Positions 37,135-64,000 are shown, counted from the stretch's first letter. The stretch is DNA of 64,000 nucleotides from Kiritimatiellia bacterium (GCA_045589455.1 JAZNPC010000010.1:149-64148); one strand, 5' to 3'. A program made the numbers and translations. The notes: a model not told the origin generated them from the letters alone.

Positions 37135-37184
37135 GTGCGATTTTTTCGACAGAATTCTCTAGATTTCTGCGGATGCTGTGCCGT

Positions 37185-40773: not shown

Positions 40774-40779
40774 ATATAA

Positions 40780-41559: not shown

Positions 41560-41573
41560 GGATAAGATGATTT

Positions 41574-42380: not shown

Positions 42381-42397
42381 TTGTAGGAAGGGATAAA

Positions 42398-42790: not shown

Positions 42791-42816
42791 CTAGAGCAAT
42801 TTAAGTTTTATATAGA

Positions 42817-43746: not shown

Positions 43747-43800
43747 TGTGGCGCACGTGACGCTAAAGGGACGCCTTGCACACCAAGTGCGCACTCATTT
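43747..43800. repeat. Short copy of the 'cacgtgacgc..aagggacgc' repeat module between convergent genes
   Basis: 'gtggcgcacgtgacgctaaagggacgcc' resembles 'gtgatgcacgtgacgccgaagggacgca' at 25030, 50254 and 50306. Confidence 0.6.
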
Positions 43801-43821
43801 TAAGAAATCCTATGCTTTTTG

Positions 43822-45228: not shown

Positions 45229-45244
45229 AATAAATCTCCTTTCC

Positions 45245-46603: not shown

Positions 46604-46604
46604 T

Positions 46605-47306
46605 TTACACCTCCTTTATTAAATCGCTATTAGCGATAAGTCCATCCTTGATATGAATTGTGGTTTTTGTATAATCACAAACCTCAGCATCATGTGTTAC
46701 AAGAATAATTGTAATATTATCCTCTTTATTGAGCTGCTGAAACATTCTTAAAATTTCATCGGTTGTAACAGAATCAAGATTTCCAGTTGGCTCATCAGCA
46801 AAAAGAATTTTTGGTCGATTAATCAGTGCTCGGGCTATTGCAACACGCTGCTGCTGTCCACCGGAAAGCTGAGCAGGGTGATGGTGCATTCGTTCCTTTA
46901 GACCAAGCCTTATTAATAGCTCTTCTGCCCATTCTTTGTTTTCCTTCTTGCTTGCTCTTGTTTTGCTATATTCGAGTGGCATTAGCACATTTTGGAGCGC
47001 AGATGTACGAGAAAGCAAATTGAAGTTTTGAAATACAAAACCAATTCTGCCAGAACGAAGCTCAGCACGCTCATTTGCGGAAATGTTAGCCACATTTTTA
47101 CCATCTAACCAATATTCGCCAGAGGTTGGGTTGTCAAGAAAACCAAGAATATTCATAAGAGTTGATTTTCCAGATCCAGAGGCACCCATAAGAGCAACTA
47201 GATCGCCCTGTGCAATGCTAAGGGAAATTCCTTTTAGAACAGGAACTTCTAGCCCACCATTAAGCTTATAGGTTTTTGTAAGGTTTTTTAACTCAATTAA
47301 ACTCAT
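46605..47306 (-). CDS. ABC transporter ATP-binding protein (MacB-type)
   Basis: Walker [25 protein letters not shown] and [12 protein letters not shown]. Confidence 0.9.
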
Positions 47307-47373
47307 ATTTTCCTCCTTTCCAAATTAATGCAAAGGCTTATTAATGATAGTAGTGTATATACTATTACTATTG

Positions 47374-48654: not shown

Positions 48655-48674
48655 ATTGCTTCTCCTCGTTTATT

Positions 48675-48708
48675 TGAATTTGCATTCATAATAGTGAATT
48701 TATATTCA
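48675..48708. promoter_or_regulatory. Two 14-bp palindromes TGAAT-N4-ATTCA spaced 20 bp apart (candidate operator pair) upstream of the macA-like operon
   Basis: tgaatttgcattca (48675-48688) and tgaatttatattca (48695-48708), 21-54 nt upstream of the minus-strand start at 48654. Confidence 0.35.
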
Positions 48709-48916
48709 TTTGTCAAGTGGCTTTTTTTATTTTTTTTCTATGTTTTGTTAAGCATCAAAGTTGTTTGCCATTTAAACCTAGCACTTTTAGCCACCACGTG
48801 CCATGGTATTGATTGCGAGGTTTAGATGTATTCTGTTGATAATTGAGAGCCCCATAAGTATGTTGATAGTAAATTGATAATTTGATAAAATGATTCTAAT
48901 AAATAGGGGAATAAAT

Positions 48917-50239
48917 ATGAAAAAGTTTTTACTCTTTGTTGTTTTATTAGCACTTTCAGTGAATGTATTTGCTGAAAATAAATTTAGTCCTGAAACAGTA
49001 GCCGCGCAAGAGGCTTTTATAAATGATGGTTTTGGTATTTTTATTCATTGGGGTATTTATGCAATTCATGGGAAGGGCGAGTGGTGGCTTAATAAATCAA
49101 AAATGCCTTTAGAGGAATATGAGGCTGTAGCATCTCAATTTAATCCAACAAATTTTGATGCAAATGCTTGGGCTGAAGCTTTTGCTGATGCTGGTGCACG
49201 CTATGTAACAATTACCTCACGCCACCATGATGGCTTTTCTATGTTCGCTACCACAAATACAACCTACGATATTGTGGATGCAACACCATATAAGCGCGAT
49301 CCGATGGCTGAGCTTGCTACAGCATGTAAGAAGCATAACTTGAAGCTAGGCTTCTATTATTCTCTCCTTGATTGGCGCCGAGAGGATTTTCCTCATTATA
49401 AAGGCCGCGGAGATTATGATTCATATTATGCCTTTATGAAGGGGCAGCTGGGAGAGCTCTTAACTAATTATGGACCAATTAATTGCATATGGTTTGATGG
49501 GCAATGGGCGCGCACTGACGCTGGCTTTGATTGGCGCTTGCCTGAGCTATTTGATTATGTTCGCTCAATTCAACCATCCTGCTTAGTTGGTAATAATTCA
49601 CATGTATCACTTCAGCCTGGTGAGGATTTCCAAATTTGGGAAATTAATTATCCAGGAGGTCACACAGGTCACATGAATGATAAGCAAACCATTGCAACAA
49701 ATGTACCTTTGGAATGCTGCTGGTCAATGACCTCTGATGCATGGGGATATCAGCCTAATGATTTGATGGAAAAGAATCCATCAAAGGAGCTCATTCGAAA
49801 GCTAGTGCGCACTCGTTTTCTTGGCGCAAATCTTCTACTAAATGTTGCTCCTGCTCCAGATGGATCCATTCCTGAACCCGCATTAGAGCGTCTCAAGGAT
49901 ATTGGAGAGTGGATGGATAAGTATGGCGATACCATTATAGATGCAAAGCCTGGTCATATTTATTTGGGAGGTCACAAGGAGTTCTCTAATGTAATTTCTA
50001 CTATCTCTGAGGATGGTAAAACAATACATTTGCATATTTTAACAGATGGCAAGAAGGATTTTGGATTATGGATCCCATTCCCAGATACAATTGTAGCAAT
50101 CACCAATCGCATGACAGGTGCTGAGCTACCATTTGTGCAGAAAATGCATCATTCAAAGCGCTACTTATCTCTACACCTAGATTTAGAGGCTGATGTGCCA
50201 GACACAATTCTCGACATCACTATCGACCCTTCAAACTAA
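48917..50239 (+). CDS. Alpha-L-fucosidase (GH29), secreted
   Basis: ORF 48890-50239. I prefer the ATG at 48917 (AGGGGA upstream; MKKFLLFVVLLALSVNVFA signal). GH29-type segments are FGIFIHWG, TSRHHDGFSMF and WFDGQW. Confidence 0.85.
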   Translation: MKKFLLFVVLLALSVNVFAENKFSPETVAAQEAFINDGFGIFIHWGIYAIHGKGEWWLNKSKMPLEEYEAVASQFNPTNFDANAWAEAFADAGARYVTITSRHHDGFSMFATTNTTYDIVDATPYKRDPMAELATACKKHNLKLGFYYSLLDWRREDFPHYKGRGDYDSYYAFMKGQLGELLTNYGPINCIWFDGQWARTDAGFDWRLPELFDYVRSIQPSCLVGNNSHVSLQPGEDFQIWEINYPGGHTGHMNDKQTIATNVPLECCWSMTSDAWGYQPNDLMEKNPSKELIRKLVRTRFLGANLLLNVAPAPDGSIPEPALERLKDIGEWMDKYGDTIIDAKPGHIYLGGHKEFSNVISTISEDGKTIHLHILTDGKKDFGLWIPFPDTIVAITNRMTGAELPFVQKMHHSKRYLSLHLDLEADVPDTILDITIDPSN

Positions 50240-50248
50240 TCTCTAGCA

Positions 50249-50700
50249 GCTAGCGTGATGCACGTGACGCCGAAGGGACGCAGAGACGCAGAGACGCAGA
50301 GCTAGCGTGATGCACGTGACGCCGAAGGGACGCAGAGACGCAGAGGGCGCGGAGGACGCGGGGCTGGTGTGATGGGTGTGGTGTGGGGCGCGAATGCGCA
50401 CATTCCCGCTTGTTGTTGCCTGGGTTTATTGCGAAATCTAACGAAGCAATAAGGCAACTGCCAAGCGCTAATGTGTATGACCCACCAAGGCTTTTGAGGT
50501 TGGGGGCGTGAAAAACAATCAACAATCAACAGTCTACTGCCAACAATGGAGTCTTAACGTCTAATGTCGTTCAATTGTCTATCGTCTAATTGTCACATAG
50601 GAACACCCGTTTGGTGAAGGCAACCCGCCTACTAGCTCAGGAGAAATATAGTCTATCTCCACATCTTCCTTAGGCGTGAGCCATCGCAGACGCCATCTCC
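50249..50700. repeat. GC-rich repeat block: 52-bp tandem duplication, the ~200-bp element, and 'cgtctaa' modules
   Basis: 'gctagcgtgatgcacgtgacgccgaagggacgcagagacgcagag' starts at 50249 and again at 50301. 50301-50497 matches 25025-25222. 50550-50600 ('cgtctaatgtcgttcaattgtctatcgtctaattgtc') resembles 2090-2140. Confidence 0.85.
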
Positions 50701-50810
50701 GCTCGAGATGTAAAATCTATAATTGATAATTCTTGAATTATCATTTTATAAGTGATAATATATCGCTACAAAATGTTAAAAGATTGATTTTATACGCTTA
50801 GCGTAATTCG

Positions 50811-50957
50811 TCTTCGTGAAAATCGCCAAATTTAAACGAGTATGGACGGACAAGCGCGTGCAAGGTGTATTGTACCATTTGCGCGTCTCTATGTTTGCTC
50901 ATACAAGGTGTTTGGCGATACCTCACGGAGGCAAATTTTAGGGACGCGTTTTTTTAT
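50811..50957 (+). other. Inverted-repeat-bounded ~120-nt element ending near a T7 run (candidate structured RNA or recombination-site remnant)
   Basis: 'ttcgtgaaaatcgccaaa' (50813-50830) pairs with 'tttggcgatacctcacggag' (50911-50930). There is an internal hairpin gcaaggt..accatttgc. 'acgcgttttttt' ends at 50957. Confidence 0.3.
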
Positions 50958-51082
50958 TCTCTAAAATAGGCTTCCATGCTAAGAAATAAAAATTATATCT
51001 ATTGGCATAAGTTTTTTATTACTAAATAGGAATAAATATAGAAATCGGTATCTGTTTGTAGAGTTAAACATAGGAGAAAATT

Positions 51083-51504
51083 ATGCGTGACGATATAAAT
51101 TTTGATGAAGAAAAGCTAAAAAAGAGCAGTCCAAGTATGCCCCAAAGGATGAGAATGAGATTAAAGAGAAGGTTTTAAATAAAGAAGAAAAGTTGAATAG
51201 CAAGTTTTCTACAATAGAAAAGTTAAAGCCTTATTGGGACGATTTTAAAACAATTTTCTCTATGATTAAGGATTGCGTTACTGGAAAGTATAAAGAAACA
51301 CCATTTACAACAATTGCTAGCTTAGCTGGTGTATTAATTTATGTTCTTTCTCCAATTGATTTAATGGCTGATTTCATTCCACTTCTAGGATATGTGGATG
51401 ATGCTGCAATCTTGGGTCTTGCCATTAAACTAGCTGCTGCAGATATTGAAAAATATCGTCAGTGGAAAAAGACAATAGATGTAGAAGAAAAGCAGGTCAA
51501 CTAA
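51083..51504 (+). CDS. DUF1232/YkvA-family membrane protein; full-length product requires a -1 frameshift at 51118-51124 (otherwise TTG start at 51193)
   Basis: AGGAG lies 7 nt upstream of ATG 51083, opening a 31-codon ORF. The DUF1232 frame (..YVLSPIDLMADFIPLLGYVDDAAILGLAI..) is open from 51109 and is reached by a -1 slip on A AAA AAG. Confidence 0.55.
51118..51124 (+). other. Candidate -1 ribosomal frameshift heptamer A AAA AAG (or homopolymer indel site)
   Basis: In the ATG-51083 frame the codons read cta-aaa-aag. X XXY YYZ = A AAA AAG, the same heptamer as the E. coli dnaX site. Confidence 0.35.
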
Positions 51505-51517
51505 TTTTCCCCAAAGA

Positions 51518-51551
51518 GCAAATCTAGCCTAGATTTCTTAGCTAGATTTGC
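51518..51551 (+). other. Intergenic stem-loop between the DUF1232 gene and the next ORF
   Basis: Perfect 11-bp inverted repeat gcaaatctagc / gctagatttgc with a 12-nt loop, followed by tttcccc. It starts 14 nt after the stop at 51504. Confidence 0.35.
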
Positions 51552-51584
51552 TTTCCCCATAAATATATTCAAGAAATTGTAATT

Positions 51585-52172
51585 ATGAATAACATAGATA
51601 CTGGCCACGGAGCTGAAATTGCAGTAGGCTTAAGGAGTTGCTCTTCGATTATCCTTGTCCCTATTATTGCAATATGCTCAGGCATTATCATTGGTAAAGA
51701 GTACGGAACAGTTGTTGGTATTCTTGGTGGTATTGTTTGTAGCTCTATCTTTTTTAAGCTTTACCATAGGTTTATCGCTACGCAGATTAAAGGACTTACA
51801 GTACTAGACTGCTTGATTCCGTTTTTAGTTTCACTCGTTTCTGGTGTCATTTTTGCTCCAGTGTCACTTTTTTCAGCTAGTGTCTTTTCAATAGCCACAT
51901 GTATTTACTCTGGAGTACTATTGTCAGCAACACTATTCTTGTATAAGGCACAAAAAGTGTCTGTAGGATACCTTGTATTCCCATTTCTAGTCTTTATGTA
52001 TGAAATATTACCTATAGAGCTACCAACGGATCTAGATAACATATTTGCGCTTTCTGGTAATACAGTTCATCAGTTTATTGCATTAACTGCAGCTAAGATG
52101 AAAAAATCGCTCTCTAATGATTCTCCTACCTCAACAGATGACGAGACCATTATTGATGTCGACCCAGAGTAG
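51585..52172 (+). CDS. Polytopic membrane protein of unknown function (about 5 TM, acidic C-terminal tail)
   Basis: 195 aa with successive hydrophobic, G/S-rich segments. The tail is SNDSPTSTDDETIIDVDPE. Confidence 0.55.
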   Translation: MNNIDTGHGAEIAVGLRSCSSIILVPIIAICSGIIIGKEYGTVVGILGGIVCSSIFFKLYHRFIATQIKGLTVLDCLIPFLVSLVSGVIFAPVSLFSASVFSIATCIYSGVLLSATLFLYKAQKVSVGYLVFPFLVFMYEILPIELPTDLDNIFALSGNTVHQFIALTAAKMKKSLSNDSPTSTDDETIIDVDPE

Positions 52173-52248
52173 AAGCATATTTGGTAAATATATTTTATTT
52201 TGCATAGTATCATTTCTATGATGTAATAAAGAAATAAAGAAAGTTTTT

Positions 52249-53868
52249 ATGTGTTTATGGATTGTTGTTGGTTCTATTTTAGCATTTATTATAACAATAT
52301 GTATTATGTATTGGAATGTTGTTAAAATTTTATTAATTATAGTTGCTATAATTTATGTGCTATCTTTATTAGTCAGCTTAATTAAAAAAGTAATTAAAAA
52401 GGTTGAGCATGAAAATGAGTTGAAATTATTTGCTATAAATGAAGAGAATAAAACCGAAGAAAAAAAACAAAACATAAATTTCAAAAAGTTGTCAAATATA
52501 CTTTTTGTATCAACAATAGATTTAAGAGAGCATCCATTAAAAAACGAAAAGTATAAAAAACGTAAACAATATTTTGAAGTATTAATGTTTCTAATTAATA
52601 ATTCAGTGATTTCAGAAAAATTGAAAGATTTTACTGAAGGTCGTTTATCTATGTATTTTGATTGTTTGTTGCCTGAATTGATGTCTGAAAAGAGTGAAAT
52701 ATTAAATCAAAAAATAGAAGAAAAGGTTTTTATAAAAAAATTAATGCCTTTGTTTTATTTTGCTAATGTAAAGTATTCATATATATTTCTGTCAGATTTG
52801 TGTTTGTTTCTTCAAGAAGAATCGCTAATTTCATATGCAATAGTTGTATTAAAACGATATCTACCCAAATTTATGTGGGCAAAAATAGATAAAAAATATT
52901 ATAGAATTAAAAATTTATCAGTAATATCTGAAAAATATAAGCAGATTGCTGTTTTAATAGAGCAATATAAAACCAATATTGAATTTTTTGCTAGAAAGGA
53001 AAAAAGGGTAATTGTTACAGCTCTTGTTAGTGCAGGAAAATCAACACTAATTAATTCTTTAATTGGAGAAAGATTAACTAGAACAAAATCGGAAATTTGT
53101 ACAAGTAATTTGGCATACATATATAATAAAGCCTATAATGATGGGACCCTTCATTTTTATCAAAATGATAATAAAAAATCTTCTATAAACCAATGTGTGT
53201 GCTTTAATGCAAGTGAAGATGACATAAATACTTATGATATAAATGAAAAAATAAATGTTTCTGCATCGTTTTTAGGTGTTTACTCAAATTGGTCTAGAAT
53301 TTGTTTAATAGATACACCAGGGGTTGATGCTGCTATTAATGTGGAACATGGGGAGTGTACAAAAAAAGCTCTTTTAAATGAGTGTTATGATATGATTCTT
53401 TATGTGGTAAGTCCAAATCAAATAAGTACGGATTCACAAAAAGAATATTTAAAATGGATATTAAATAATCTTCCTAAAAAAAAGATAGTTTTCGTTATTA
53501 ATAAATTAGATACATTAAAACCTAAAGAAGATAGTATAGCTGATACAATATTTAATTTTTATAAAGATTTATGTGATATCGGTTTTAAGAATCCTACTAT
53601 TTGTCCAATATCTTCTTATTTTTCTTTCTTATTAAAGCAAAAAATATCAGGAAAAGACTTTTCCGAAGATGAAATTGACGATTTTAGGTTTTATAGTAGT
53701 AGGTTTTCTAAACCATTTTATAATTTATCAGGATATTATAACGAAGAATTAGAAGATATTAATCTTGAAATAAATGATTTATTGCAATTAAGCAAACGTT
53801 GTGGTTTATATGGTATTGAAAAAATAATAAATGAGGAAATAAATGAAAAAAATATTTATAAAATATAA
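52249..53868 (+). CDS. Membrane-anchored dynamin-like GTPase (LeoB/C-like)
   Basis: 539 aa with N-terminal TM helices (aa 1-45). G1 is ALVSAGKST (53020-53046), G3 is DTPG (53311-53322) and G4 is NKLD (53500-53511). Confidence 0.75.
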   Translation: MCLWIVVGSILAFIITICIMYWNVVKILLIIVAIIYVLSLLVSLIKKVIKKVEHENELKLFAINEENKTEEKKQNINFKKLSNILFVSTIDLREHPLKNEKYKKRKQYFEVLMFLINNSVISEKLKDFTEGRLSMYFDCLLPELMSEKSEILNQKIEEKVFIKKLMPLFYFANVKYSYIFLSDLCLFLQEESLISYAIVVLKRYLPKFMWAKIDKKYYRIKNLSVISEKYKQIAVLIEQYKTNIEFFARKEKRVIVTALVSAGKSTLINSLIGERLTRTKSEICTSNLAYIYNKAYNDGTLHFYQNDNKKSSINQCVCFNASEDDINTYDINEKINVSASFLGVYSNWSRICLIDTPGVDAAINVEHGECTKKALLNECYDMILYVVSPNQISTDSQKEYLKWILNNLPKKKIVFVINKLDTLKPKEDSIADTIFNFYKDLCDIGFKNPTICPISSYFSFLLKQKISGKDFSEDEIDDFRFYSSRFSKPFYNLSGYYNEELEDINLEINDLLQLSKRCGLYGIEKIINEEINEKNIYKI

Positions 53869-56134
53869 CCCTTATTATTTGGAAACAAAATTTACTATAG
53901 ATGGTAAATCTCTTCCTACAAATAGTGAAATTAATGCACGTATTAATCAACCTGATGTGCGTCTACAAGAGTGGATAGAAGATTTACCTCAGCTTTTGAT
54001 TGATGAATGTAACGATAAGAAGTTTGACATTCAATTTCATGGTACTATATTAGATTACGAAGATGTTAAAGAGGTGTTTGAATGTGCTTCTAATGAAGAA
54101 AAGTTAGAGGTGAAGCTAGATAGAATACCTGCAAAAGAAACATCTGAAAAGGAATCTTTAATTGAAGATGTATTTAAAGAAATACAAAATGGACCTATTG
54201 ATGAACTACGTGATGAGAAAATAATTAATGCATTTAATAATGCAAAAAATAGTGAGTTTGAAATTTGTGTTGTAGCTACAATGAGTGCAGGTAAGTCTAC
54301 ATTGATAAATTCAATGCTTGGAGACAAAATGATGCCTTCAAGTCAAGAGGCTTGCACGGCCATTATTACTAGAATTAAAGATGTTGATTCAAATGTTAAT
54401 TGGCATGCTAAAGTATTTGGAAAAGATAACGAACTATTAGAATCAGTTGAAAGTCTTACATATGAAGAGATGGATAGATTTAATAGAGATTCTAAAGTAT
54501 CTTTAATACAAGCCGAAGGTAATATTCCTTTTGTAACCTCACAAAAAACTTCACTAGTTTTAATTGATACTCCTGGTCCAAATAATTCTAGAGATAAAGA
54601 ACATGAAAAAGTTCAAAGTAGATTTTTAGGTAAGTCGTCTAAAGCACTTGTCCTTTATATTATGGAAGGGACATATGGAAATAATGACGACAATGAATTG
54701 CTTCGTAAGGTTGCAGAGAGTATGAAGTCAGGCGGAAAGCAATCTAAAGACCGTTTCCTTTTTGTTATAAATAAGGTTGATGATCGTAAGCAAGAAGATA
54801 GTAAAATGGAGGATATGCTTTTAAGAATTAAGGACTATTTACAAATACATGGAGTTAAAAATCCAAATTTATATCCTGCAGCAGCTTTACCCGCACTTAA
54901 CATAAGATTAATGCAATCACATAATGACATTCTTGATGAAGACATTCTTGATGAAACAGAATTTAAAGTTAAAAAGTTAAATAGAAATGTTGATTTGCAT
55001 TTAGAAAAGTATTCTTCATTACCATTAAGCCTTAGAAGAAAAATTGATTCTGATTTAGAAATTGCTAAAAATAATGGAGATGTGTTTACACAGGCCTTAA
55101 TTCATACAGGAATAGTTTCTGTTGAGACGGCGATTCGTCAATATGTTGAAAAATATGCAAAAACAGCGAAAATTAAAAATATTGTAGATACTTTTAAAGG
55201 AAAATTAGAGGCTGTTTCTTATGAACAAGAAATGAAGAAAGAGATTGCTAAAAATGAAGAAGAGTGTGAAAAGATTACTGCACAAATAAGTTCGATAGAG
55301 AGTCAAATTAAAGACGGAAAAAATGCTCAAGTATTTAAAAAAGAAGTTTCAAAAGCATTGAAAAAAGTTAAAAAAGAAATAGAGGAAAAGATTAATCAAA
55401 ATGTAGAAGAGTTTCAAAATGAATTATTGGAAATAATTAACACATATGGGAATGATGATATTCCCGTTGAAAAAATCTCTTCAATTTTGTCTCAGGTAAG
55501 TAAAAAGGTAAAGTCAATCGAAGCAAATTTTCAAGTTGCTTTAGAGGGATCAATCAATACTGGATTAATATCAACAAGTAAATATCTTTTAGAAGAGTAT
55601 AAAACAAAACTATCATCGTTAACAAAAGATATAGATTTGAAAAACCTTTCAGGAGTTTTTATTGACCCATTGAAGTTAATGTCAGGTAGTGTTCCAAGTA
55701 TAGATAGCTTAAATATTGATGTAGAAGAAAAAGAAGAGGTAGTAGGTGAAGAATGGATTGAAAATACAAACAAAAAATGGTGGAAGTTTTGGACTTGGTT
55801 TGATGATCCTGGTCATTATATAACAAAGTATAAAACTGTAAAATATGTTTTAGGTAGCGAATTAGCTCAAGAAATGCTCGCACCTATAGAGGATACATTA
55901 ATTCAAAACGGAGAATCTGCATTAAAACAAGCGTTATATCAATCTCAAAGAATAGCGGAAAAATATGAGAAAGAGTTTGTTCGTTTAGATGATGTATTGA
56001 CAAAAAAATTGCGTGAGTTAAAACAAATTACTTCTGATAAAACAAACAAAGAGAAGTTGATTAACGATGCACAAGGAAAATTAAATTGGTTAGATAATAT
56101 TAAGAAAAGAGTTGATTCGATTCTTGAAATATAA
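53843..56134 (+). CDS. Large dynamin-like GTPase with helical stalk (LeoA/DynA-like)
   Basis: 763 aa. G1 is ATMSAGKST (54275-54301), G3 is DTPG (54566-54577) and G4 is NKVD (54770-54781). The C-terminal ~360 aa are K/E-rich and helical, with a Trp-rich patch WIENTNKKWWKFWTWF (55754-55801). The start overlaps the previous ORF by 26 nt; GAGGA Shine-Dalgarno upstream. Confidence 0.8.
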   Translation: MKKIFIKYNPYYLETKFTIDGKSLPTNSEINARINQPDVRLQEWIEDLPQLLIDECNDKKFDIQFHGTILDYEDVKEVFECASNEEKLEVKLDRIPAKETSEKESLIEDVFKEIQNGPIDELRDEKIINAFNNAKNSEFEICVVATMSAGKSTLINSMLGDKMMPSSQEACTAIITRIKDVDSNVNWHAKVFGKDNELLESVESLTYEEMDRFNRDSKVSLIQAEGNIPFVTSQKTSLVLIDTPGPNNSRDKEHEKVQSRFLGKSSKALVLYIMEGTYGNNDDNELLRKVAESMKSGGKQSKDRFLFVINKVDDRKQEDSKMEDMLLRIKDYLQIHGVKNPNLYPAAALPALNIRLMQSHNDILDEDILDETEFKVKKLNRNVDLHLEKYSSLPLSLRRKIDSDLEIAKNNGDVFTQALIHTGIVSVETAIRQYVEKYAKTAKIKNIVDTFKGKLEAVSYEQEMKKEIAKNEEECEKITAQISSIESQIKDGKNAQVFKKEVSKALKKVKKEIEEKINQNVEEFQNELLEIINTYGNDDIPVEKISSILSQVSKKVKSIEANFQVALEGSINTGLISTSKYLLEEYKTKLSSLTKDIDLKNLSGVFIDPLKLMSGSVPSIDSLNIDVEEKEEVVGEEWIENTNKKWWKFWTWFDDPGHYITKYKTVKYVLGSELAQEMLAPIEDTLIQNGESALKQALYQSQRIAEKYEKEFVRLDDVLTKKLRELKQITSDKTNKEKLINDAQGKLNWLDNIKKRVDSILEI

Positions 56135-56145
56135 AGGAGTATATT

Positions 56146-56664
56146 ATGCCTTTAACTAAAGCATTTTATGAAGCAATAAGAACAAAAAATGTTCGTCGAG
56201 TTAGAATAATGTTAAAAAATAGCCTTGTTGTTGATCCATCCTTTTCTGAATATAAATCAATGATTGATATTGCATCTAATTTAGAAGGATTGTTTGATGA
56301 GCATGATGGAAAGATTTTTAATAATGAAAAAAGTTTTTGGAACGATGAATATGTAAGTAAAGAAATGGCAAGACTTATTTCTAATTTTTCTAAGGAAAGA
56401 ATTGATCATTTAAAGGATGTTATTCGTTTCTTGAATCCGATGAATACTAATCAACAAAAGCATTATGGTAAATCCAAAAGGTTTTCACATCAAAAGAGAA
56501 AAATAATTACAGGAGCAGTTGTTGGTGCTACAATTGGTGCATTGTTAGGTAATGTAATAAATGACGAGAATGGAATTGTGTCAGTATTATTCGGAGTTGC
56601 AGGAGCTATAGCTGGTAGTGTTGTTGTGAATTGTATCTCTAATGAGGATAAAGGAAATGAGTGA
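56146..56664 (+). CDS. Glycine-zipper two-TM membrane protein of unknown function
   Basis: 172 aa with AAGGAG Shine-Dalgarno upstream. The C-terminus is ITGAVVGATIGALLGNVI...VSVLFGVAGAIAGSVVVNCI (nt 56503-56637). Confidence 0.6.
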   Translation: MPLTKAFYEAIRTKNVRRVRIMLKNSLVVDPSFSEYKSMIDIASNLEGLFDEHDGKIFNNEKSFWNDEYVSKEMARLISNFSKERIDHLKDVIRFLNPMNTNQQKHYGKSKRFSHQKRKIITGAVVGATIGALLGNVINDENGIVSVLFGVAGAIAGSVVVNCISNEDKGNE

Positions 56665-59600
56665 TAGAGTTGTTTTGGTCAAAGACCATAATTTGAACAA
56701 TTCAATTTTGACGGATGATAATCTTATTGGACAAGGAGAGGGTAAATTTCCTTCGATAACTAAATTGGAGTCAAATTTAAAAGAATCAAGTAAGCTTGTA
56801 CAAGATATTGTTTTGAAAAATTATTTACACAAGTTAAAAGATTTAGAAGTTGTTCCTTTGCCCAATGAATTCAAAGATATAAATAAGCTTCGAATTTTTG
56901 AAATAAACGAAATGGTTTATCAAAAGGATGAATATTCAACCTATAAATTTGCTTCTGTTTTTAGCTCTTTACAAAGCTTAGATTGTGGAGTGTTTATTAT
57001 TGTCAATAGCAATGGAGAAAAAACAGATTTTTATATGGGAGTTCGTTCTAAAGATAATAATCGTACTACTAAATCTTTAAAAGATACTTTGAAAAATGCT
57101 TTGATTGGGCATTTCCCTGGTGTTAAAGTGAAAGATATGTTAGACCCAGAAGTAGAGGATTTTTTATCTGAAATTTCAAAAAATAATGTATCTTCAGTAT
57201 CATGTATTGCTAATAATAAAGATGAAGATTTTAAGAATAATGATAATTTTATCCAAGGTCTTGAAAAATTGGCTTTAGCAATGCAAGGGAAAAAATATAC
57301 TGCTATAGTGCTAGCAAACTCTATTAATAATAGTCAAATTTCGGATGTTCGGAGTGCTTATGAAACCATTTACACTCAGATATCTCCTTTTGCTAATATG
57401 CAACTTTCATATGGGACGAATACTGCTTTAAGTATTTCTGATGCTTTGTCTAAAGGAGCTACAACAGGAAGTTCTTATTCTAAAAATATAGGTACTTCTA
57501 GAGGAACTTCAACATCAAGTGGGGATACATATTCCGAATCAGCTTCAAAGCCTGACATTTTATCTTCTGGATTAAAGATTGCGGGGGCTGCTATTTTAGG
57601 AGCCGCTGCTATAGCTACTGCTATTCCTACAGGAGGGGTTAGTTTAGCAGTAGCTGGAGCAGCTATAGTGAATTCAATTCCAATGGTAACCAAAACCAAA
57701 GGTCGTTCTCACTCAAAAAACAAATCTCAAAGTGTAACATCTAACGAAGGTGAAACATTTGGAGAAAATTCTAGTACTTCTGAAAATGCTACCCATACTA
57801 TAGGAGAAACCATTGGAAAAACAGAAAATATGCAGTTAACAATGCAAAATAAAACATTGTTAAATACATTGGAGAAAATAGATTGTCAGTTACAACGTCT
57901 TAATGAGTGTGAAAGTTTAGGGATGTGGGAATGTGCTGCGTATTTTATGTCAGATAGTTTAGAAACTGTTGAGATGGCCGCAGGAACATATAAGGCTTTA
58001 ATGAAAGGCTCTAAATCAGGTGTTGAAACATCCGCAATTAATACTTGGGGATGGTATGAAAAAAATAAAATTCCAATATTATGTGAATATATTACAAATT
58101 TTATACACCCAATATTTGCCTACCCTACAGATGGAGAATTTATCCCAGTGACTCCAGCATCAATGGTAAGTAGTAATGAGCTTGCAATTCAAATGGGGTT
58201 GCCTAGGAAATCTGTATGTGGTTTTCCTGTTGTTGAACATGCTGAATTTGGAAAAGAGGTTGTTTCTAACTTAGACATTAAATCCTCAAGAACTATTCCT
58301 ATTGGGAATATTTTTTCTATGGGTTCAGAAACAAAAACACCAGTTAAATTAAGTATAGATTCATTGACAATGCATACATTTGTGACTGGTTCAACAGGTT
58401 CAGGTAAGAGTAATACATTATATGAGATTTTGTATCAATTGCATAATTTCAATAATGTCCCTTTTCTAGTAATAGAACCAGCAAAAGGTGAGTATAAAAA
58501 CATTTTTGGAAATTCTCATAATGTGTCAGTATATGGAACGAATGCAAAGAAAACTGAGGTCTTAAAAATAAACCCTTTTAGTTTCCCAGATGATATTCAT
58601 GTATTAGAGCATTTGGATAGACTAGTAGAAATATTTAATGTATGTTGGCCAATGTATGCTGCGATGCCCGCAATTTTGAAGGAAGCAATTGAAAAGGCAT
58701 ATATTTCTGTTGGTTGGGATTTGATTGATTCAATAAATGTCAATGGAAATATATTCCCAAATTTCACTGATGTTTTAGAACAAATTGAGATTGTTATTAA
58801 TGAGTCTCAATATTCAAAAGATTGTAAAGGAGATTATTCTGGTGCTTTAACAACGAGAATTCGCTCTATGACAACAGGTTTAAATCGTCTTATTTTTACA
58901 CAAAATGAAATTTCTAATTCTGATTTATTTGATAAAAGTGTTATTGTTGATTTAAGTAGAGTTGGATCTACAGAAGAGAAAGCTTTAATTATGGGAGTTC
59001 TTGTAATGAAGCTGAATGAATATAGAATGACATCAGGGAAGATAAATAGCTCATTGTCTCACATAACAGTTTTGGAAGAAGCACATAATTTGTTGAAGCG
59101 TACATCAACAGAACAAAGCTCAGAGAGTTCAAACCTTCTTGGTAAATCAGTAGAAATGCTCTCAAATTCTATCGCAGAAATGCGTACATATGGAGAGGGA
59201 TTTATTATTGCTGATCAAGCACCAGGTTTGTTAGACATGTCTGTAATACGAAATACAAATACAAAAATTATACTTCGTTTGCCAGAGAAAAGTGATAGAG
59301 AATTAGTTGGTTATGCTGCTTGTTTAAAGGATAATCAGTTAGATGAAATCTCTAAGCTGCATAGAGGCGTTGCGGTAATATATCAAAATGATTGGATAGA
59401 GCCAGTTCTTGTACAGATTAGAAAATGCAATTTAGAAGAGAATTCTTATTCATACAACCCGCCATCAAAACAAACATCAAAACCGAATGTCTTGAAGCAA
59501 TTGATAAATTTTTTAATATGTAATAATGTTAGGGAAAAATTAGATTTCTCTATTGCAGATATAGAGCAAGGAATAGATTTTTTAGCTTTGTCTTCGTCAA

Positions 59601-59950
59601 ATTTAAATTTTATTAAAAAACTACTTGGAGAATATAAAAAGTTTAATTCATTAGAAATATGGAGTAACCATAAATATAATTCACTTGCTTTAAATATAGT
59701 GAATATTCTTAATCTTAGAAATAAAATTGAGCAATTAGTTTTAAATTCATCTAATAACTCATCGTTAACACATGATTTAAAAGAAATTGTTTTAGATATA
59801 TTCCCAAAATCTTCTGAATCATTTATTATGACTTTAATACATTTGTTTATGAAGGACTTTAGTTTAAGTCGAGAGGAAAATGAACAACGTACTAAAATAT
59901 ATTTAAATTGGTTAAGTTATATTACAAAATATGGAGTAAAAAATGATTAA
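56657..59950 (+). CDS. Membrane-embedded HerA/FtsK-superfamily P-loop ATPase (N-terminal domain, S/T/G-rich segments, 2 TM, DUF87/HerA-like ATPase, C-terminal helical domain)
   Basis: ORF 56642-59950. I prefer the ATG at 56657 (GGATAAAGGAA upstream; ATGAGTGA overlap with the previous stop). Walker A is GSTGSGKS (58388-58411) and Walker B is ITVLEEAH (59063-59086). IIADQAPGLLD...NTNTKIILRL follows. The TM pair LKIAGAAILGAAAIATAIPTGGVSLAVAGAAIVNSIPMV spans nt 57563-57685. Confidence 0.75.
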   Translation: MSDRVVLVKDHNLNNSILTDDNLIGQGEGKFPSITKLESNLKESSKLVQDIVLKNYLHKLKDLEVVPLPNEFKDINKLRIFEINEMVYQKDEYSTYKFASVFSSLQSLDCGVFIIVNSNGEKTDFYMGVRSKDNNRTTKSLKDTLKNALIGHFPGVKVKDMLDPEVEDFLSEISKNNVSSVSCIANNKDEDFKNNDNFIQGLEKLALAMQGKKYTAIVLANSINNSQISDVRSAYETIYTQISPFANMQLSYGTNTALSISDALSKGATTGSSYSKNIGTSRGTSTSSGDTYSESASKPDILSSGLKIAGAAILGAAAIATAIPTGGVSLAVAGAAIVNSIPMVTKTKGRSHSKNKSQSVTSNEGETFGENSSTSENATHTIGETIGKTENMQLTMQNKTLLNTLEKIDCQLQRLNECESLGMWECAAYFMSDSLETVEMAAGTYKALMKGSKSGVETSAINTWGWYEKNKIPILCEYITNFIHPIFAYPTDGEFIPVTPASMVSSNELAIQMGLPRKSVCGFPVVEHAEFGKEVVSNLDIKSSRTIPIGNIFSMGSETKTPVKLSIDSLTMHTFVTGSTGSGKSNTLYEILYQLHNFNNVPFLVIEPAKGEYKNIFGNSHNVSVYGTNAKKTEVLKINPFSFPDDIHVLEHLDRLVEIFNVCWPMYAAMPAILKEAIEKAYISVGWDLIDSINVNGNIFPNFTDVLEQIEIVINESQYSKDCKGDYSGALTTRIRSMTTGLNRLIFTQNEISNSDLFDKSVIVDLSRVGSTEEKALIMGVLVMKLNEYRMTSGKINSSLSHITVLEEAHNLLKRTSTEQSSESSNLLGKSVEMLSNSIAEMRTYGEGFIIADQAPGLLDMSVIRNTNTKIILRLPEKSDRELVGYAACLKDNQLDEISKLHRGVAVIYQNDWIEPVLVQIRKCNLEENSYSYNPPSKQTSKPNVLKQLINFLICNNVREKLDFSIADIEQGIDFLALSSSNLNFIKKLLGEYKKFNSLEIWSNHKYNSLALNIVNILNLRNKIEQLVLNSSNNSSLTHDLKEIVLDIFPKSSESFIMTLIHLFMKDFSLSREENEQRTKIYLNWLSYITKYGVKND

Positions 59951-60896
59951 TAATTTTGACATTAGTAATATCAATAAATTTAACAATGAACTAAAGGATT
60001 GTAATTTATATAAGCAGATTGAAGGAGAAGATAAAAAAAAATCAGGAATAGAAAAATCTCTGGATAATGTTTGTACTCAAGAAACAAATCCAAGTGTTGA
60101 TGAACAAGGACATGTATATAGAAAAGAGAATGGAGATTTGCTCCCTAATAATAATTTCGTGATGGGTGAAAATACATTTAAAACAGATGATAATGGCAAA
60201 ATCTACGCTATAGATGGAAAACTTGTTCCAGAAAATAAGTATGAATTAAATTGTGCTTCGTATGAAACAGACGAATTGGGACGTATTAGAAAAGTAGTTG
60301 CTCAAGACTTAAAGATAACACCAGAAAACTTAAGAGATTCCACAGCACAAACTTTAGTTGGCGGCAAAGATAGATTGCTAGGAGATAATGGCGGTCATTT
60401 GGTTGCTCGTATACATGGGGGCGATGCTGGTATTGGAAATCAAGTAGCTGTTCGCGACGTAATTAATAAAGGTGATTGGAAGATTGATGAGAATACAATA
60501 AGTGATTTAATAAAAAAAGGTAAAAATGTCAGGACGGAAGCGGAAATTTTTTATGATGGTAATTCTGAGCGACCATCTAAAATAGAGATTTCAATCTATT
60601 CTAATGGAGAAAAAATAAGCGAAGCTGTTTATGATAACAATATTGGATCGAAGGATTTATTAGGATTGGAAAAACTTAAAGATATATTAAGCCCTAGTGA
60701 TTATCAAAACCTTTGCGATGAAATTTCTCAATTAGAAAAAAATGGAGATAAGGTTAGTATTACTTCTGTAACATTTAAGTCAGGAGAAGATCCTTCAATA
60801 GCAGTGAGAAATGAAACAACGGAAAAAACTTGTTATTGGCCATGGAATACACGCAATGAAGGAAAAACATTGAGTGATGTATTTCACAATTCATAA
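59943..60896 (+). CDS. His-Me finger nuclease, Endonuclease_NS_2-like (EsaD/YeeF-type toxin domain)
   Basis: 317 aa. The start overlaps the ATPase stop (ATGATTAA). The pre-toxin pattern YETDELGRIRKV is present. Catalytic pattern: GDNGGHLVARIHGG (60381-60407) ..GNQVAV..INKGDWKIDEN..NVRTEAEIFYDGNSERPSKIEISIY. There is no signal peptide or TM. Confidence 0.7.
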   Translation: MINNFDISNINKFNNELKDCNLYKQIEGEDKKKSGIEKSLDNVCTQETNPSVDEQGHVYRKENGDLLPNNNFVMGENTFKTDDNGKIYAIDGKLVPENKYELNCASYETDELGRIRKVVAQDLKITPENLRDSTAQTLVGGKDRLLGDNGGHLVARIHGGDAGIGNQVAVRDVINKGDWKIDENTISDLIKKGKNVRTEAEIFYDGNSERPSKIEISIYSNGEKISEAVYDNNIGSKDLLGLEKLKDILSPSDYQNLCDEISQLEKNGDKVSITSVTFKSGEDPSIAVRNETTEKTCYWPWNTRNEGKTLSDVFHNS

Positions 60897-60916
60897 ACAA
60901 CAGGTAGGTGTAAATA

Positions 60917-61309
60917 ATGGAAATAACTATAACCTATGAAGAGGTTTCTAATATAATAAAAACCAAATCTAATGTAAATGCGACATTTACAATGATTGAC
61001 AGCGAATCAATAAGTGTTAAAGTTAAACCTGGATTGCTTATTCCTGCGGTTAATATAACCTTAAAATTAGAAAAAGATGCTAAAGAGTATAAAATTCGTT
61101 ATGGCTCTGGTGTTGTGTCTCTTCTAGTAACAAAAATAGTAAATTTGTTCGTAAATGATAAACTACCTGAATTTGTCAGATTAGATACATCGAATAATAC
61201 TTTATCTTTTGATTCTACAATTAAGCATAATGGGATTGTTGTAGATATTAAGGATATTACATTTTTAGAAGAAAAAATTTCAATATCTTTATTTTTAAAA
61301 GATTTGTAA
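60917..61309 (+). CDS. Small beta-rich protein, candidate cognate immunity/inhibitor of the upstream nuclease
   Basis: 130 aa, 20 nt after the nuclease stop, with AGGTAGGTG Shine-Dalgarno upstream. The role is inferred from position only; I recognise no motif. Confidence 0.4.
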   Translation: MEITITYEEVSNIIKTKSNVNATFTMIDSESISVKVKPGLLIPAVNITLKLEKDAKEYKIRYGSGVVSLLVTKIVNLFVNDKLPEFVRLDTSNNTLSFDSTIKHNGIVVDIKDITFLEEKISISLFLKDL

Positions 61310-61734
61310 AATTATCAGTCATCTCATATTGCTCAACCTAAATTCGGTGTTGCGCATCTGAGTTATTCACCAGATTATTCTAATGTCAAAATCATCACTT
61401 AACAAAATCAATGACCGGCTTTAATTATGCTACAATGAAGGGTTAAAAAAAGCAACAATCAAAGCATTGTCTCCTAAGTATTATGTATTTGTAGAAGTTT
61501 GATAGGTTTTTGGAATAAAAATCATTGTCTATTTTATTAGAGTTAGTATTGTGATTTGTAAGCATTTGTAGTTGTATTTTTGTTCCACCTTCCATAAGAT
61601 TTATTCGTCAAATGAGGAATAAACAAATGTAGGCGGGATGTGCTGCTAGGGTTCCGTGAAATCGCCAAGGCCGTATTTCGGCAATATGATGAATGACCTA
61701 ACACCATTCCGCTTACTTCTTTTAAGGAGATTAT

Positions 61735-62451
61735 ATGAACGAAAACATTTTGCAAGCAAAACTAGATAAATTGTTTGATAATTGGAAGGCAGCAATAGAT
61801 GCTTGTCCAGAAATTCCTGCAGAAATTAAGGAATGCTTCGTGCGCGATGGCTTCTATCCAGGCTACCTAAACCAAAAGTGTAAGGTGCTGTTTGTGGCTC
61901 GCGAATCACTTAGTGTTGAAGGAGATTATATAAAAGAGGTTTTTGATGCATATAAAAGTAAACGTGTTGGTGGCAAAAATATCAATCAGTATCAATTCCA
62001 TGCGTTAATGATGTATATAGCATATGCTCTAAATAATAATTGCTTTGATTGGAATAGCATTCCTTGGGCAGAAAAGCTCTGCGAGACATTTGGTACGCCT
62101 GGCGGACTTAGCTTCGCTTTTATGAATTTGTCTAAATTCAGTAATTGGTCGAAATCTAGTTGGCAAAGTAATTGGAATTTGATAAATTCTTCTCTAAATG
62201 TTAGTGGCAACGATTCTTTCATCAAACAGGAAATTGAATTGCTAGACCCAGATGTAATTATTACTATGAATTTAGATGGTAATTTAAGTTACTTGGGTGA
62301 AATGCGCAAGATTGTTAATACCACCGATATCAATAAATATGCTTACAAGATCAATGGTAAGGAAATACCTCTCTACGATATGTGGCATTTTTCTGCCCCA
62401 AGTAAGTCGCCAAGAGGAAATTATTTGGAGCCACTTAGTAAATTAGTTTAA
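61735..62451 (+). CDS. Hypothetical protein, possibly uracil-DNA-glycosylase-fold
   Basis: 238 aa with AAGGAG Shine-Dalgarno upstream. It loosely resembles UDG-superfamily motif positions (KVLFVARES ... LDPDVIITMN ... WHFSAPS). Composition is closer to the core genome. Confidence 0.3.
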   Translation: MNENILQAKLDKLFDNWKAAIDACPEIPAEIKECFVRDGFYPGYLNQKCKVLFVARESLSVEGDYIKEVFDAYKSKRVGGKNINQYQFHALMMYIAYALNNNCFDWNSIPWAEKLCETFGTPGGLSFAFMNLSKFSNWSKSSWQSNWNLINSSLNVSGNDSFIKQEIELLDPDVIITMNLDGNLSYLGEMRKIVNTTDINKYAYKINGKEIPLYDMWHFSAPSKSPRGNYLEPLSKLV

Positions 62452-62465
62452 AAGGGAGAAAAAAC

Positions 62466-62666
62466 ATGGCAAAGCAACGTGTTGATTTGACAGATAAGAA
62501 GTGTGCTACCTGTCGTTGGTGGCAAGGTGATCGTGAGGTGATATTTTGGTCTCGTAAGCCATTTAAAGTCGAGTGCGATGCACAAGGTATGTGTCCATCC
62601 TGCAAGCAAAATAAGACCTATAGCTTTAGCTGCAGAAATTGGGTTCCATGGGAAAAGCTTCCATAA
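62466..62666 (+). CDS. Small Cys-rich protein (CxxC ... C ... CxxC ... C)
   Basis: 66 aa with GGGAGAAAAAAC upstream. Cysteines occur in CATCRWW, ECDAQGMCPSC and FSC. Confidence 0.4.
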   Translation: MAKQRVDLTDKKCATCRWWQGDREVIFWSRKPFKVECDAQGMCPSCKQNKTYSFSCRNWVPWEKLP

Positions 62667-62748
62667 TGCTACGTTTGACAGTTAATTACTGAATTTAGAT
62701 TAAAAATATAAATGAGGTTTTATAACTTAAAGTAAGGAAAAAAGTAAT

Positions 62749-64000
62749 ATGAGAAGTTGTCTAACTGTGTTTTTAGGAATCGTTATTATTGGTGCTATTC
62801 TTCTGATATATTTCTTTTGGGAAGCAATAATAGCGTTATTATTAGCGTTGTTACAAATAGTTTTGACATTTATTGCAATAGTGGTGGGAATTGTGGTAAT
62901 GATTGCTGTAGTAAGTTATTTTAGGAAAAGAAAAATAAAAGAATTAGCACGCTTAGAGCGGGAAAGAAATGCTACATTAGAAAATAGAATTCGAGAAGAA
63001 GTTTATATACCGGTTCCTGAATATGCAGTTACATCTAACAATTATTATGAATGCTTACACATTCTTGAAGAAGCTGCAGATTATAAAAGAAGGATTGAAA
63101 ATGCTTCATCAAAGCTTGAAAAGAGCCAATTAAAAAATGAGTTGTCTAATTTCAGGCTTAAATCATTCTATGTTATTTCTCTACGTCATGAAGTTGATGA
63201 AGAAAAATGGGCGTCTTATGAAACAAAGATTAATAATATTTTATCTAAAAATGGTGATTGGAATTTGCTAAGAATAGAAGATAATGAAAAATCATTAGTT
63301 ACTGGAAAATACGAAGCTAAAGTAAAAAATAATTTAGGTAATATAACATTGAGGCTTGAGGATAATAATATCGATGATGTCATTAAAAGAGTTGATTTGA
63401 TTAAAGATTTTGATACATCAGGTATTTTTACAACGCACAGTTTGACTAAGCTTAATGATAAAACAGAACAAATGACTAAATGTTATGATTCTATTGAGAA
63501 GAGGTATAAAGAGCTATCGGATGTGGGTGAAATAACTAATAAGATTTTGGTAGAAGCTCGTGGTGCTGCATATCGGAATATTTTCTTAGGTGTAGAACTT
63601 TTGAATTATATTAGAGATAATTCTGGAGGAACGGGGCTAAAGGTTCAACATGATTCGGTTGATATGCAAGAAATTAATCTTTCAACAGATATTCCATTAA
63701 GTAGTTTGAATATTGATTTTGGAGAAGTTTTGAAAGTGGGTTTGTTTAACAAAGAAGGCACTAAAGCTATTTCAAGAATTTTGAAAAATCCTAAGAGTAT
63801 TGGTTACAATAGTGCTTTAATTGGCATTTCTGTTGCAAAAGAACTTTTAAAAGCACGTAATAAAGCAATTCAGGCAAATATAAAACAACAAAAGGAACTG
63901 ATAAAATGTATTGACGATGCTTGTAAAAATTATACAAATACTCGTGCTCAAATGTTTAGAGCAATTGAAATAGTTAAAGCGATTGTTCATTCAAATGCAG
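62749..64000 (+). CDS. Membrane-anchored coiled-coil protein of unknown function (3'-truncated by the window end; absent from the ORF track)
   Basis: I translated it by hand. ATG 62749 has AAGGAAAAAAG upstream, and the frame stays open for 417 codons to 64000. The N-terminus MRSCLTVFLGIVIIGAILLIYFFWEAIIALLLALLQIVLTFIAIVVGIVVMIAVV gives two or more TM segments, followed by K/E-rich helical sequence. The region is AT-rich. Confidence 0.6.
   Translation, partial: MRSCLTVFLGIVIIGAILLIYFFWEAIIALLLALLQIVLTFIAIVVGIVVMIAVVSYFRKRKIKELARLERERNATLENRIREEVYIPVPEYAVTSNNYYECLHILEEAADYKRRIENASSKLEKSQLKNELSNFRLKSFYVISLRHEVDEEKWASYETKINNILSKNGDWNLLRIEDNEKSLVTGKYEAKVKNNLGNITLRLEDNNIDDVIKRVDLIKDFDTSGIFTTHSLTKLNDKTEQMTKCYDSIEKRYKELSDVGEITNKILVEARGAAYRNIFLGVELLNYIRDNSGGTGLKVQHDSVDMQEINLSTDIPLSSLNIDFGEVLKVGLFNKEGTKAISRILKNPKSIGYNSALIGISVAKELLKARNKAIQANIKQQKELIKCIDDACKNYTNTRAQMFRAIEIVKAIVHSNA

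Follow-up and report, generated by a model that had tools for sequence, protein, structure and literature searches.

The stretch of DNA analyzed here (the window) comprises 64,000 nucleotides (nt) of a Kiritimatiellia bacterium (GCA_045589455.1 JAZNPC010000010.1:149-64148). Up to about position 50700 it is ordinary chromosome with a G+C (GC) content of ~40%, bearing metG, glgB, carbamoyltransferase genes, ptsP, a MacAB-TolC cluster, and a GH29 fucosidase gene; from there the GC content falls to 0.25-0.35 and stays low to the end of the window. Just inside this AT-rich block lies a long imperfect hairpin, the 5' arm of which recurs far downstream, in the leader of the next gene module. Here we describe this hairpin as what appears to be a member of a large, widespread, and apparently undescribed family of phage-borne structured RNAs, and consider its possible function as a conditional terminator ahead of accessory genes. 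The element and the features that belong to it are as follows.

50810-50962, + strand: the whole element, as delimited by a covariance model built only from members on phage contigs
50723-50752, + strand: candidate sigma-70-type promoter, predicted from a -35 box TTGATA (50723-50728), an 18-nt spacer, and a -10 box TATAAG (50747-50752)
50810-50819, + strand: 5' strand of the basal helix P1, GUCUUCGUGA, from the fold; P1 covaries in the family
50820-50831, + strand: 5' side of the internal loop, AA, then the 5' strand of helix P2, AUCGCCAAAU, from the fold and the family alignment
50820-50821, + strand: the internal-loop AA itself
50822-50830, + strand: 5' helix arm of P2
50832-50909, + strand: variable upper hairpin, from the fold
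50881-50890, + strand: apical 3' strand GCGCGUCUCU, with the trailing segment as its alternative partner
50910-50932, + strand: 3' strand of P2, GUUUGGCGAU, the 3' side of the loop, ACC, and the 3' strand of P1, UCACGGAGGC, from the fold
50911-50919 and 50920-50922, + strand: 3' helix arm of P2 and the loop ACC, respectively
50940-50955, + strand: trailing segment AGGGACGCG and a U7 run, complementary to 50881-50890 and the candidate alternative intrinsic terminator
61653-61670, + strand: direct repeat of the 5' arm, identical in its P1 bases, UCCGUGAAAUCGCCAAGG ("copy 2"), 64 nt before an ATG at 61735

The hairpin and its relatives

A preliminary description of this DNA had pointed to the string ttcgtgaaaatcgccaaa (50813-50830), its imperfect inverted partner tttggcgatacctcacgga (50911-50929), and a direct partner tccgtgaaatcgccaagg (61653-61670), and had suggested that the inverted pair encloses a foldable element of ~120 nt; every string it quoted is present where it was placed. 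The inverted pair forms the base of a 123-nt imperfect hairpin (50810-50932) with a terminator-like tail extending to 50955, the T7 run being 50949-50955. On the + strand the hairpin has a folding energy of -53.8 kcal/mol (z = -4.6), and none of 200 shuffled sequences is as stable, whereas the - strand of the same region reaches only -40.2 kcal/mol. This and the covarying family described below bear out the foldable element. The 3' half alone (50876-50958) folds into a distinct, terminator-like hairpin (-31.8 kcal/mol, z = -5.2), in which GCGCGUCUCU (50881-50890) pairs with AGGGACGCG(U) (50940-50949) and the U7 run follows immediately.

The first relatives were obtained by scanning metagenome contigs with a two-arm pattern, which yielded one human-gut locus in three samples (L180-L182). 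Its arms are the same as those in the window, including an extension, CCUCACGG, that had not been selected for; its asymmetric loop is of a similar kind (A/CC versus AA/ACC in the window), and the interior of the hairpin is entirely unlike that of the window. The same design is seen there: the apical 3' strand has its complement in a trailing segment, which a U-run follows. Homologues of the adjacent membrane protein of 71 amino acids (aa) led to two more variants and to the full context (L183-L185). The family proper was defined from IMG/VR contigs (L186-L305) with a pattern that contained only P2, ATCGCCAAA-N55-85-TTTGGCGAT, and that matched at least 120 viral loci; among the matches listed, ~80 are true members, of which 51 are distinct. 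For comparison, the 15-mer alone gave 86 chance matches on viral contigs, with no hairpin, and two-arm and 3'-arm patterns that included P1 gave no matches, because P1 is variable; the P2-only pattern alone revealed the family.

A common architecture is shared by at least 51 distinct relatives: a variable basal helix P1 of at least seven pairs, an internal loop with AA on its 5' side and (A/G)CC on its 3' side (AA/RCC), P2 (AUCGCCAAA/UUUGGCGAU, 55-85 nt apart), a variable upper hairpin, and a trailing segment with a U-run. In the window, P1 is GUCUUCGUGA/UCACGGAGGC, the loop is AA/ACC, and the apical strand 50881-50890 is complementary to 50940-50949, followed by U7. The window has P2 at the required spacing (50822-50830 and 50911-50919) by construction, because P2 was the search pattern. 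A covariance model, R2, was built from 28 viral members, with the window and L180-L185 left out. R2 matches the window at 50810-50962 over model positions 1-147 of 147 with 60.7 bits (rough E ~1e-11), a score of which the share owed to P2 is by construction and the rest is not. This is the top match in the 128 kb searched, the next best in the window having 21.3 bits, and the independent prophage copies L180-L185 score 45-51 bits. Since the family was found through a pattern taken from the window, the conservation of P2 and the size of the family are biased. The internal-loop AA, though outside the search pattern, is invariant in 40 of 40 aligned sequences, and so, throughout the alignment, is a GG.G ahead of the 3' strand of P2, which likewise lay outside the pattern.

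The scan for known RNA families proposed in the preliminary description returned no Rfam 15 family at the gathering threshold in the window, and nothing relevant at E values up to 10 either for 50200-51200 or for the prophage and viral members. No transfer RNA or transfer-messenger RNA genes were found in the window, BLAST against GenBank phages and plasmids found nothing, and no description of the hairpin element was found in the literature searched.

Covariation was counted on an alignment of 40 sequences. In P1, 96.8% of cells are paired and all seven pairs have changed on both sides; in the apical helix the corresponding values are 88.7% and six of eight pairs. Slid controls for the whole structure (P1 and the apical helix) give 33-44% paired, and none of 500 shuffles reaches the observed score. 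The alternative terminator helix is similarly maintained, with 86.5% paired and eight of 13 pairs changed on both sides, against 37-52% when slid and again no shuffle out of 500 reaching the score. Evolution has thus maintained two partners for the apical 3' strand, the signature of a terminator/anti-terminator switch. To judge from these alignments, the family appears to carry a switch resembling an expression platform; a role as ligand-binding aptamer is only putative. Moreover, all 51 members fold more stably as the forward strand than as its reverse complement, the difference averaging 8.5 kcal/mol, and 50 of the 51 have at least five T within an 8-nt window past the trailing helix. The strand bias and the U-rich tails together indicate that the structure matters at the level of RNA (or of a single strand), and on one strand.

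These data also bear on whether the hairpin is an AT-rich intergenic fold that arose by chance, with an accidental 14-nt match downstream. One result agrees with chance: in a blind edge-to-edge local alignment the similarity between the two edges was not significant, 121 of 300 shuffles scoring as high. The string tccgtgaaatcgccaagg matches the 5' arm of the hairpin at 14 of 15 bases, with one A deleted. The exact 14-mer CGTGAAATCGCCAA is the 5'-arm form found independently in the prophage copies, and its expected number in the window is 2.7e-4. The shuffling results for both folds (z = -4.6 and -5.2) argue in the same direction, and the covariation together with the score of a model built from other sequences effectively refutes chance, the probability of which we regard as negligible.

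Gene context and the second 5' arm

Every viral member shown has a box of the type TAnnTTTG approximately 45-55 nt upstream of P1, which in two of them ends in A rather than G. The upstream genes in the phages encode an endolysin (Amidase_3 or GH108) and a lipoprotein of ~160 aa with a C-terminal transmembrane (TM) segment. PHROGs gave no name for the latter, which is probably u-spanin-like given its lipoprotein signal, its C-terminal TM segment, and its place after the endolysin. Same-strand cargo genes start 55-100 nt past the 3' arm and are variable, encoding an HSDR_N endonuclease, an Mrr_cat restriction endonuclease, a TPR protein, lipoproteins, and small TM proteins. As a rule, a phage contig has a single copy of the element in this fixed context. 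In the prophage copies L180-L185, the U-run directly abuts the ATG of the 71-aa membrane protein; in L183-L185 a promoter box of the Bacteroidota type, TACTTTTG, and ~55 nt of leader precede the hairpin, U-run, and ATG, all in one unit, and in L180-L185 this promoter-leader-gene unit recurs in differing prophage backgrounds. The U-run between terminator stem and ATG varies from 4 to 9 residues among these near-identical copies, a variation that could tune termination.

The window copy is followed by same-strand cargo, and its promoter candidate lies ~55-60 nt upstream of P1, in a position equivalent to that of the phage box; a consensus promoter scan did not list this TTGATA-18-TATAAG candidate. 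Within it lies a perfect 9-2-9 palindrome, TGATAATTCTTGAATTATCA (50724-50743), which may be an operator. Its half-sites, TGATAAT/ATTATCA, are those of the 7-1-7 Fur box, though with a spacing of 6. A cognate DNA-binding protein common to the loci was considered and rejected, as no proteins are shared, and homology between the flanks of the window and L180 copies was sought and none was found.

One contig, L292 (2283-2434, - strand), is a chimera. It matches L189 with 94% identity in its 5' part and the upstream flank, and L212 with 99.9% identity in its 3' part and the next 1.5 kb; the switch from one to the other occurs within the conserved 3' strand of P2, and P1 is broken. On this comparison of sequences, L292 is direct evidence for cargo swapping, or recombination, at the element.

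A junction at such a place is what might be expected if the element acted as DNA, either as a palindromic repeat of the ERIC or Correia type, similar to a miniature inverted-repeat transposable element (MITE), or as a boundary sequence for the exchange of phage cargo, the RNA structure being a by-product. The conserved inverted ends around a variable interior, the position where conserved lysis genes give way to variable cargo, and the presence of the motif on both flanks of the cassette in the window are also in keeping with this explanation. Several observations speak against it. The G-U pairs favour the forward strand in all 51 members, for which a double-stranded DNA site would not select, and covariation with the apical strand extends to the trailing terminator strand, which is not part of the inverted repeat. 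Of the features of a MITE, the inverted ends are present; no target-site duplication is visible, the 64-kb window has one full copy, and the copies on phage contigs are as a rule single and in a fixed context rather than dispersed. We consider a role at the DNA level improbable.

Some phage members contain a second 5' arm, matched in P1, that is located 72-82 nt past the 3' arm, with 1-4 nt between its end and the cargo ATG. It was detected in four of 48 members tested and in none of the 48 upstream controls; the carriers are L195, L197/L198, and L262, and L237 was seen by eye as a fifth case. The P1 part of the second arm tracks the P1 of its own element (CUCGUAG, UCUUGUG, CUCGUUG), and the second arm is thus a cognate pairing partner for the 3' arm. 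In the window, copy 2 is located in the leader of the next gene module and shares the P1 bases CGUGA with the hairpin, a P1 found in none of the 51 viral members. As a pairing partner for the 3' arm, copy 2 is as good as the true 5' arm (-30.6 versus -29.3 kcal/mol). The motif pair singled out in the preliminary description is thereby shown to be meaningful, and the direct partner is, by its sequence, a genuine feature of the family. It is possible that copy 2 became separated when the DUF1232 gene and the cassette described below were inserted between the leader and its second arm; equally, it may be the remnant of a second leader that heads the next module, or a target that is acted on in trans.

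The last option belongs to a different explanation of the whole element, namely a stand-alone phage-type gene for a small RNA (sRNA) of ~190 nt, whose 3' arm acts in trans on 5'-arm targets such as the leader at 61653-61670, read-through into cargo being incidental. Nearly all members have their own promoter box and a U-rich terminator, as an sRNA gene would; the pairing of the 3' arm with copy 2 is on a par with that of its own 5' arm, and the distance between the two in the window suits action in trans. Yet the element nearly always faces a same-strand cargo gene at the short distance given above, the U-run in L180-L185 leaves no room before the ATG, the 3' arm is locked within the hairpin in the stable fold, and few of the members tested have a second arm at all. 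A stand-alone sRNA therefore seems to us rather unlikely, though it deserves consideration. The preliminary description had offered a small RNA as one option and came close: a structured, strand-specific RNA family is indeed present, and we favour reading it as a leader rather than as an independent RNA.

The AT-rich block and its edges

Apart from the element and copy 2, the block and its left flank contain the following features.

50248-50511, no strand assigned: copy of a GC-rich intergenic repeat (native family, GC 0.53-0.69) adjoining the left side of the block
51084-51504, + strand: gene for a DUF1232 membrane protein, the first downstream gene, with an apparent frameshift at an A6 run
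51585-52172, + strand: 195-aa protein with no family match
52249-60896, + strand: five-gene cassette encoding two dynamin-like GTPases, a small TM protein, a 1102-aa DUF87/HerA ATPase, and an Endonuclea_NS_2 nuclease
60917-61309, + strand: 130-aa open reading frame (ORF) after the cassette
61355-61372, + strand: 18-nt motif CATCTGAGTTATTCACCA, which also adjoins two GC-rich repeat clusters
61735-64000, + strand: further AT-rich genes of 238 aa and 66 aa, and an ORF from 62749, incomplete at the end of the window

The frame that begins with the ATG at 51084 has 31 codons, and the DUF1232 domain is in the frame of 51193-51504; the split could reflect a pseudogene, a sequencing error, or programmed slippage. 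The five-gene cassette is found again, in unchanged gene order and at 39-65% aa identity, in L175-L178, where it sits inside unrelated mobile elements, behind a WYL regulator. PADLOC gave only weak single-gene matches for it (LeoA/LeoBC, HerA, mad8), and no description of this combination of dynamin, HerA, and nuclease genes was found in the published literature. By its gene content, the cassette may be an undescribed defence system.

The left boundary of the block is real, as had been proposed. The closest relative retrieved (L167; fucosidase 84% identical at the aa level) is collinear with window positions 38779-50209 at 79-85% nt identity, and synteny ends with the stop codon of the fucosidase gene. 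Beyond it L167 has a different AT-rich block (11418-19940), starting 86 nt past that stop and encoding proteins of 410 aa, an ABC ATPase like mad3/AriA, a DO-GTPase2, proteins of 329 and 130 aa, and a patatin; from these genes it is, in all appearance, alternative defence-like cargo. The break in synteny together with the alternative block marks the site downstream of the fucosidase gene as a variable hotspot. No empty-site genome was found, and exact look-ups of proteins encoded in the window gave no match. A search with widely conserved GH29 peptide patterns gave, as the best fucosidase among the matches listed, one of 45% identity from Bacteroidales.

Repeat-family DNA had been described at both edges, with the suggestion that the block was inserted into a repeat-bearing intergenic region. 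This is confirmed on the left, where the repeat abuts the block and 50270-50510 is ~96% identical to 25009-25240. On the right there is no stretch of repeat-family DNA, and both proposals rest there on a single 18-nt motif, of which the string gcgcatctgagttattcacc (61352-61371) pointed out earlier is part. Its consensus, CATCTGAGTTATTCACCC, has copies at 21059-21076 (-), 25339-25356 (-), and 61355-61372 (+), three against 0.04 expected, and two of them lie at the gene-proximal end of GC-rich repeat clusters. The proposed right edge at 61.3-61.7 kb did not hold: beyond it the GC content is 0.30-0.35 and + strand ORFs continue to 64000. Since the cassette is conserved and AT-rich genes continue, 61309 is the end of the cassette and not of the AT-rich DNA; the spacer between the 130-aa ORF and the 238-aa gene is 425 nt long. 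As a weak lead only, the junctions of an insertion could be marked by a candidate direct repeat, CATAAG..AGGAATAAA (51006-51036 and 61593-61623); it is marginal, with 22 of 500 shuffles and two of 29 real-sequence controls scoring as high.

The preliminary description had also raised the possibility of a relic attachment or recombination site. In its specific form, the 14-15-nt direct repeats at 50815 and 61655 would be the attL and attR cores of an insertion of the 10.8-kb block by a tyrosine integrase. The repeats do flank the DUF1232 gene and the cassette, and the L180 element is within 0.8 kb of an integrase gene, for which no relatives were found in IMG/VR. The island ORFs examined contain no integrase domain, in accord with the preliminary description. 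The L185 element is located ~1.9 kb inside its prophage, between the genes for the integrase and a 128-aa protein on one side and the lysis genes on the other, so that the integrase and 128-aa genes separate it from the chromosome junction. Moreover, the second arm in phages is 72-82 nt from the hairpin, in the same transcript, and covaries with P1, which is the signature of RNA pairing. We therefore regard the attachment-site relic as very improbable, and this part of the earlier proposal is abandoned. A site of another kind was also considered and rejected. Integron attC sites have R''/L''...L'/R' boxes (RYYYAAC ... GTTRRRY) and flank promoterless cassettes; the arms here, CGUGAAAAUCGCC and GGCGAUACCUCACG, are without the AAC...GTT core.

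Some observations concern the surrounding chromosome. GC-rich intergenic repeats with heptamer runs occur at 1200-2300, 6650-7950, 20700-21160, 24910-25480, 30420-30970, 37135-37380, and 50240-50700, and the related metagenome contigs L173 and L174 end at or carry such repeats. The heptamer runs brought a cyanobacterial origin to mind; the use of Shine-Dalgarno sites in this genome speaks against Bacteroidota only. In L174 (3-2027, compared with window 43132-50235) rluD directly precedes the fucosidase gene, and the MacAB-TolC cluster (window 43822-48654) is absent, which makes it a second variable segment. A 12-nt tandem repeat (GAGCCAGAACCC-like, eight registers) at 40965-41099, inside an ORF (40780-41559) beside ExbB/ExbD genes, encodes a Glu-Pro-rich stretch, as in TonB-like proteins.

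A possible conditional terminator ahead of accessory genes

Starting from the established family membership, the covariation of both helices, the strand specificity, and the genomic context, we favour the explanation that the element is a promoter-proximal leader RNA with a conditional terminator, ahead of accessory or defence cargo, and give it about an even chance of being correct. Its own promoter, ~45-60 nt upstream, would drive transcription toward the accessory or defence genes. The transcript could then adopt one of two folds: the long hairpin of P1, the AA/RCC loop, P2, and the variable upper stem, or an intrinsic terminator in which the apical 3' strand is paired with the trailing segment before the U-run. 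As the two are mutually exclusive, the long hairpin would act as an anti-terminator, and the element would be a transcription attenuator of riboswitch-like design, gating read-through into the cargo. Since the long hairpin is the more stable fold, read-through is probably the default and termination the regulated event; a factor (protein, RNA, or ligand) would capture or disrupt the 5' arm or the P2-loop module and let the terminator form. In the subset with a second 5' arm by the start codon, its pairing with the 3' arm would add control of translation. In the window, copy 2 would have been separated from the hairpin by an insertion of ~10.7 kb containing the DUF1232 gene and the cassette, or would be what remains of a second leader.

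A number of points weigh against the conditional-terminator leader. The terminator state is less stable than the long hairpin by 6-23 kcal/mol and might rarely form without a trans-acting factor. A unit running from promoter to terminator fits the definition of a stand-alone sRNA gene just as well, and the invariance of P2 is an ascertainment artefact of the search pattern. We infer from sequence not only the transcription, termination, and read-through of the element but also which way it switches, what triggers it, and how the insertion came about. The remaining points concern the window copy. It lacks the TAnnTTTG box, has the fucosidase gene and repeats upstream rather than lysis genes, and belongs to a genome that uses Shine-Dalgarno sites, which the hosts of the phage members do not. 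Its U-run is 128 nt from the first ORF, which is seemingly frameshifted, and copy 2 is separated by 10.7 kb from the hairpin and by 64 nt from the ATG that follows it, compared with 72-82 nt and 1-4 nt in phages.

A bolder extension of the conditional-terminator leader is possible, though we think it doubtful: the family may be a new class of sensor RNA, riboswitch-like or protein-responsive, in which the P2-loop module recognizes a factor common to distant phyla, temperate phages and defence islands switch their accessory or defence cargo on or off by it, and the module doubles as a crossover point for cargo. If so, the window would record a block of 10.7 kb with dynamin, HerA, and nuclease genes dropped between a sensor and its cognate anti-sequestor copy.

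The control of accessory genes in temperate phages and defence islands is of importance because these genes are a major source of bacterial immunity and of traits affecting host fitness, and their expression is governed by mechanisms that are mostly obscure, notably in phages of gut Bacteroidota. A two-state leader backed by covariation and found before many unrelated cargo genes would provide a general regulatory handle, would serve as a marker for cargo and defence loci in metagenomes, and would be a candidate for a new riboswitch or attenuator class. For the window itself, what had been an island-edge motif becomes a specific model of a leader, its cognate second arm, and a cassette between them.

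In its design the element resembles known attenuators and riboswitch platforms, such as the T-box, the pyrR leader, and the ribonucleic antiterminator (RAT) bound by LicT and SacY: it is promoter-proximal, one strand has two exclusive partners, and one of these completes a stem before a U-run, compensatory changes here maintaining both pairings. Unlike these systems, it matches no Rfam 15 family, its putative sensor is a long, mostly Watson-Crick helix with a small AA/RCC loop instead of a multi-junction aptamer, and its anti-terminator is the thermodynamically favoured state. A purely mechanistic analogy may be drawn with the put RNA of phage HK022 and other antitermination RNAs that act in cis; put consists of two separate stem-loops and does not contain the terminator. 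Both are phage-encoded, promoter-proximal structured RNAs with a conserved lower stem and a bearing on termination in cis. By such analogy, a universal target such as RNA polymerase would explain the conservation of the element across hosts. With ERIC and Correia repeats, which are transcribed, it shares an imperfect palindrome of 120-150 nt with conserved ends that folds as an RNA hairpin; it differs from them in being single-copy, fixed in orientation and context, and free of a visible target-site duplication, and in having a covarying basal helix and an outside terminator strand. Finally, the genomic context recalls the phage morons of Hendrix and Juhala, accessory genes with their own promoter and terminator inserted between conserved phage genes. 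The units described here are likewise autonomous, carry variable accessory genes, follow the lysis cassette of temperate phages, and occur in mosaic, exchangeable contexts; in contrast to classical morons, they have a conserved structured leader with a terminator between promoter and gene. What appears to be new, then, is the family of leader RNAs itself, which would combine the design of a classical attenuator with the context of a phage moron.

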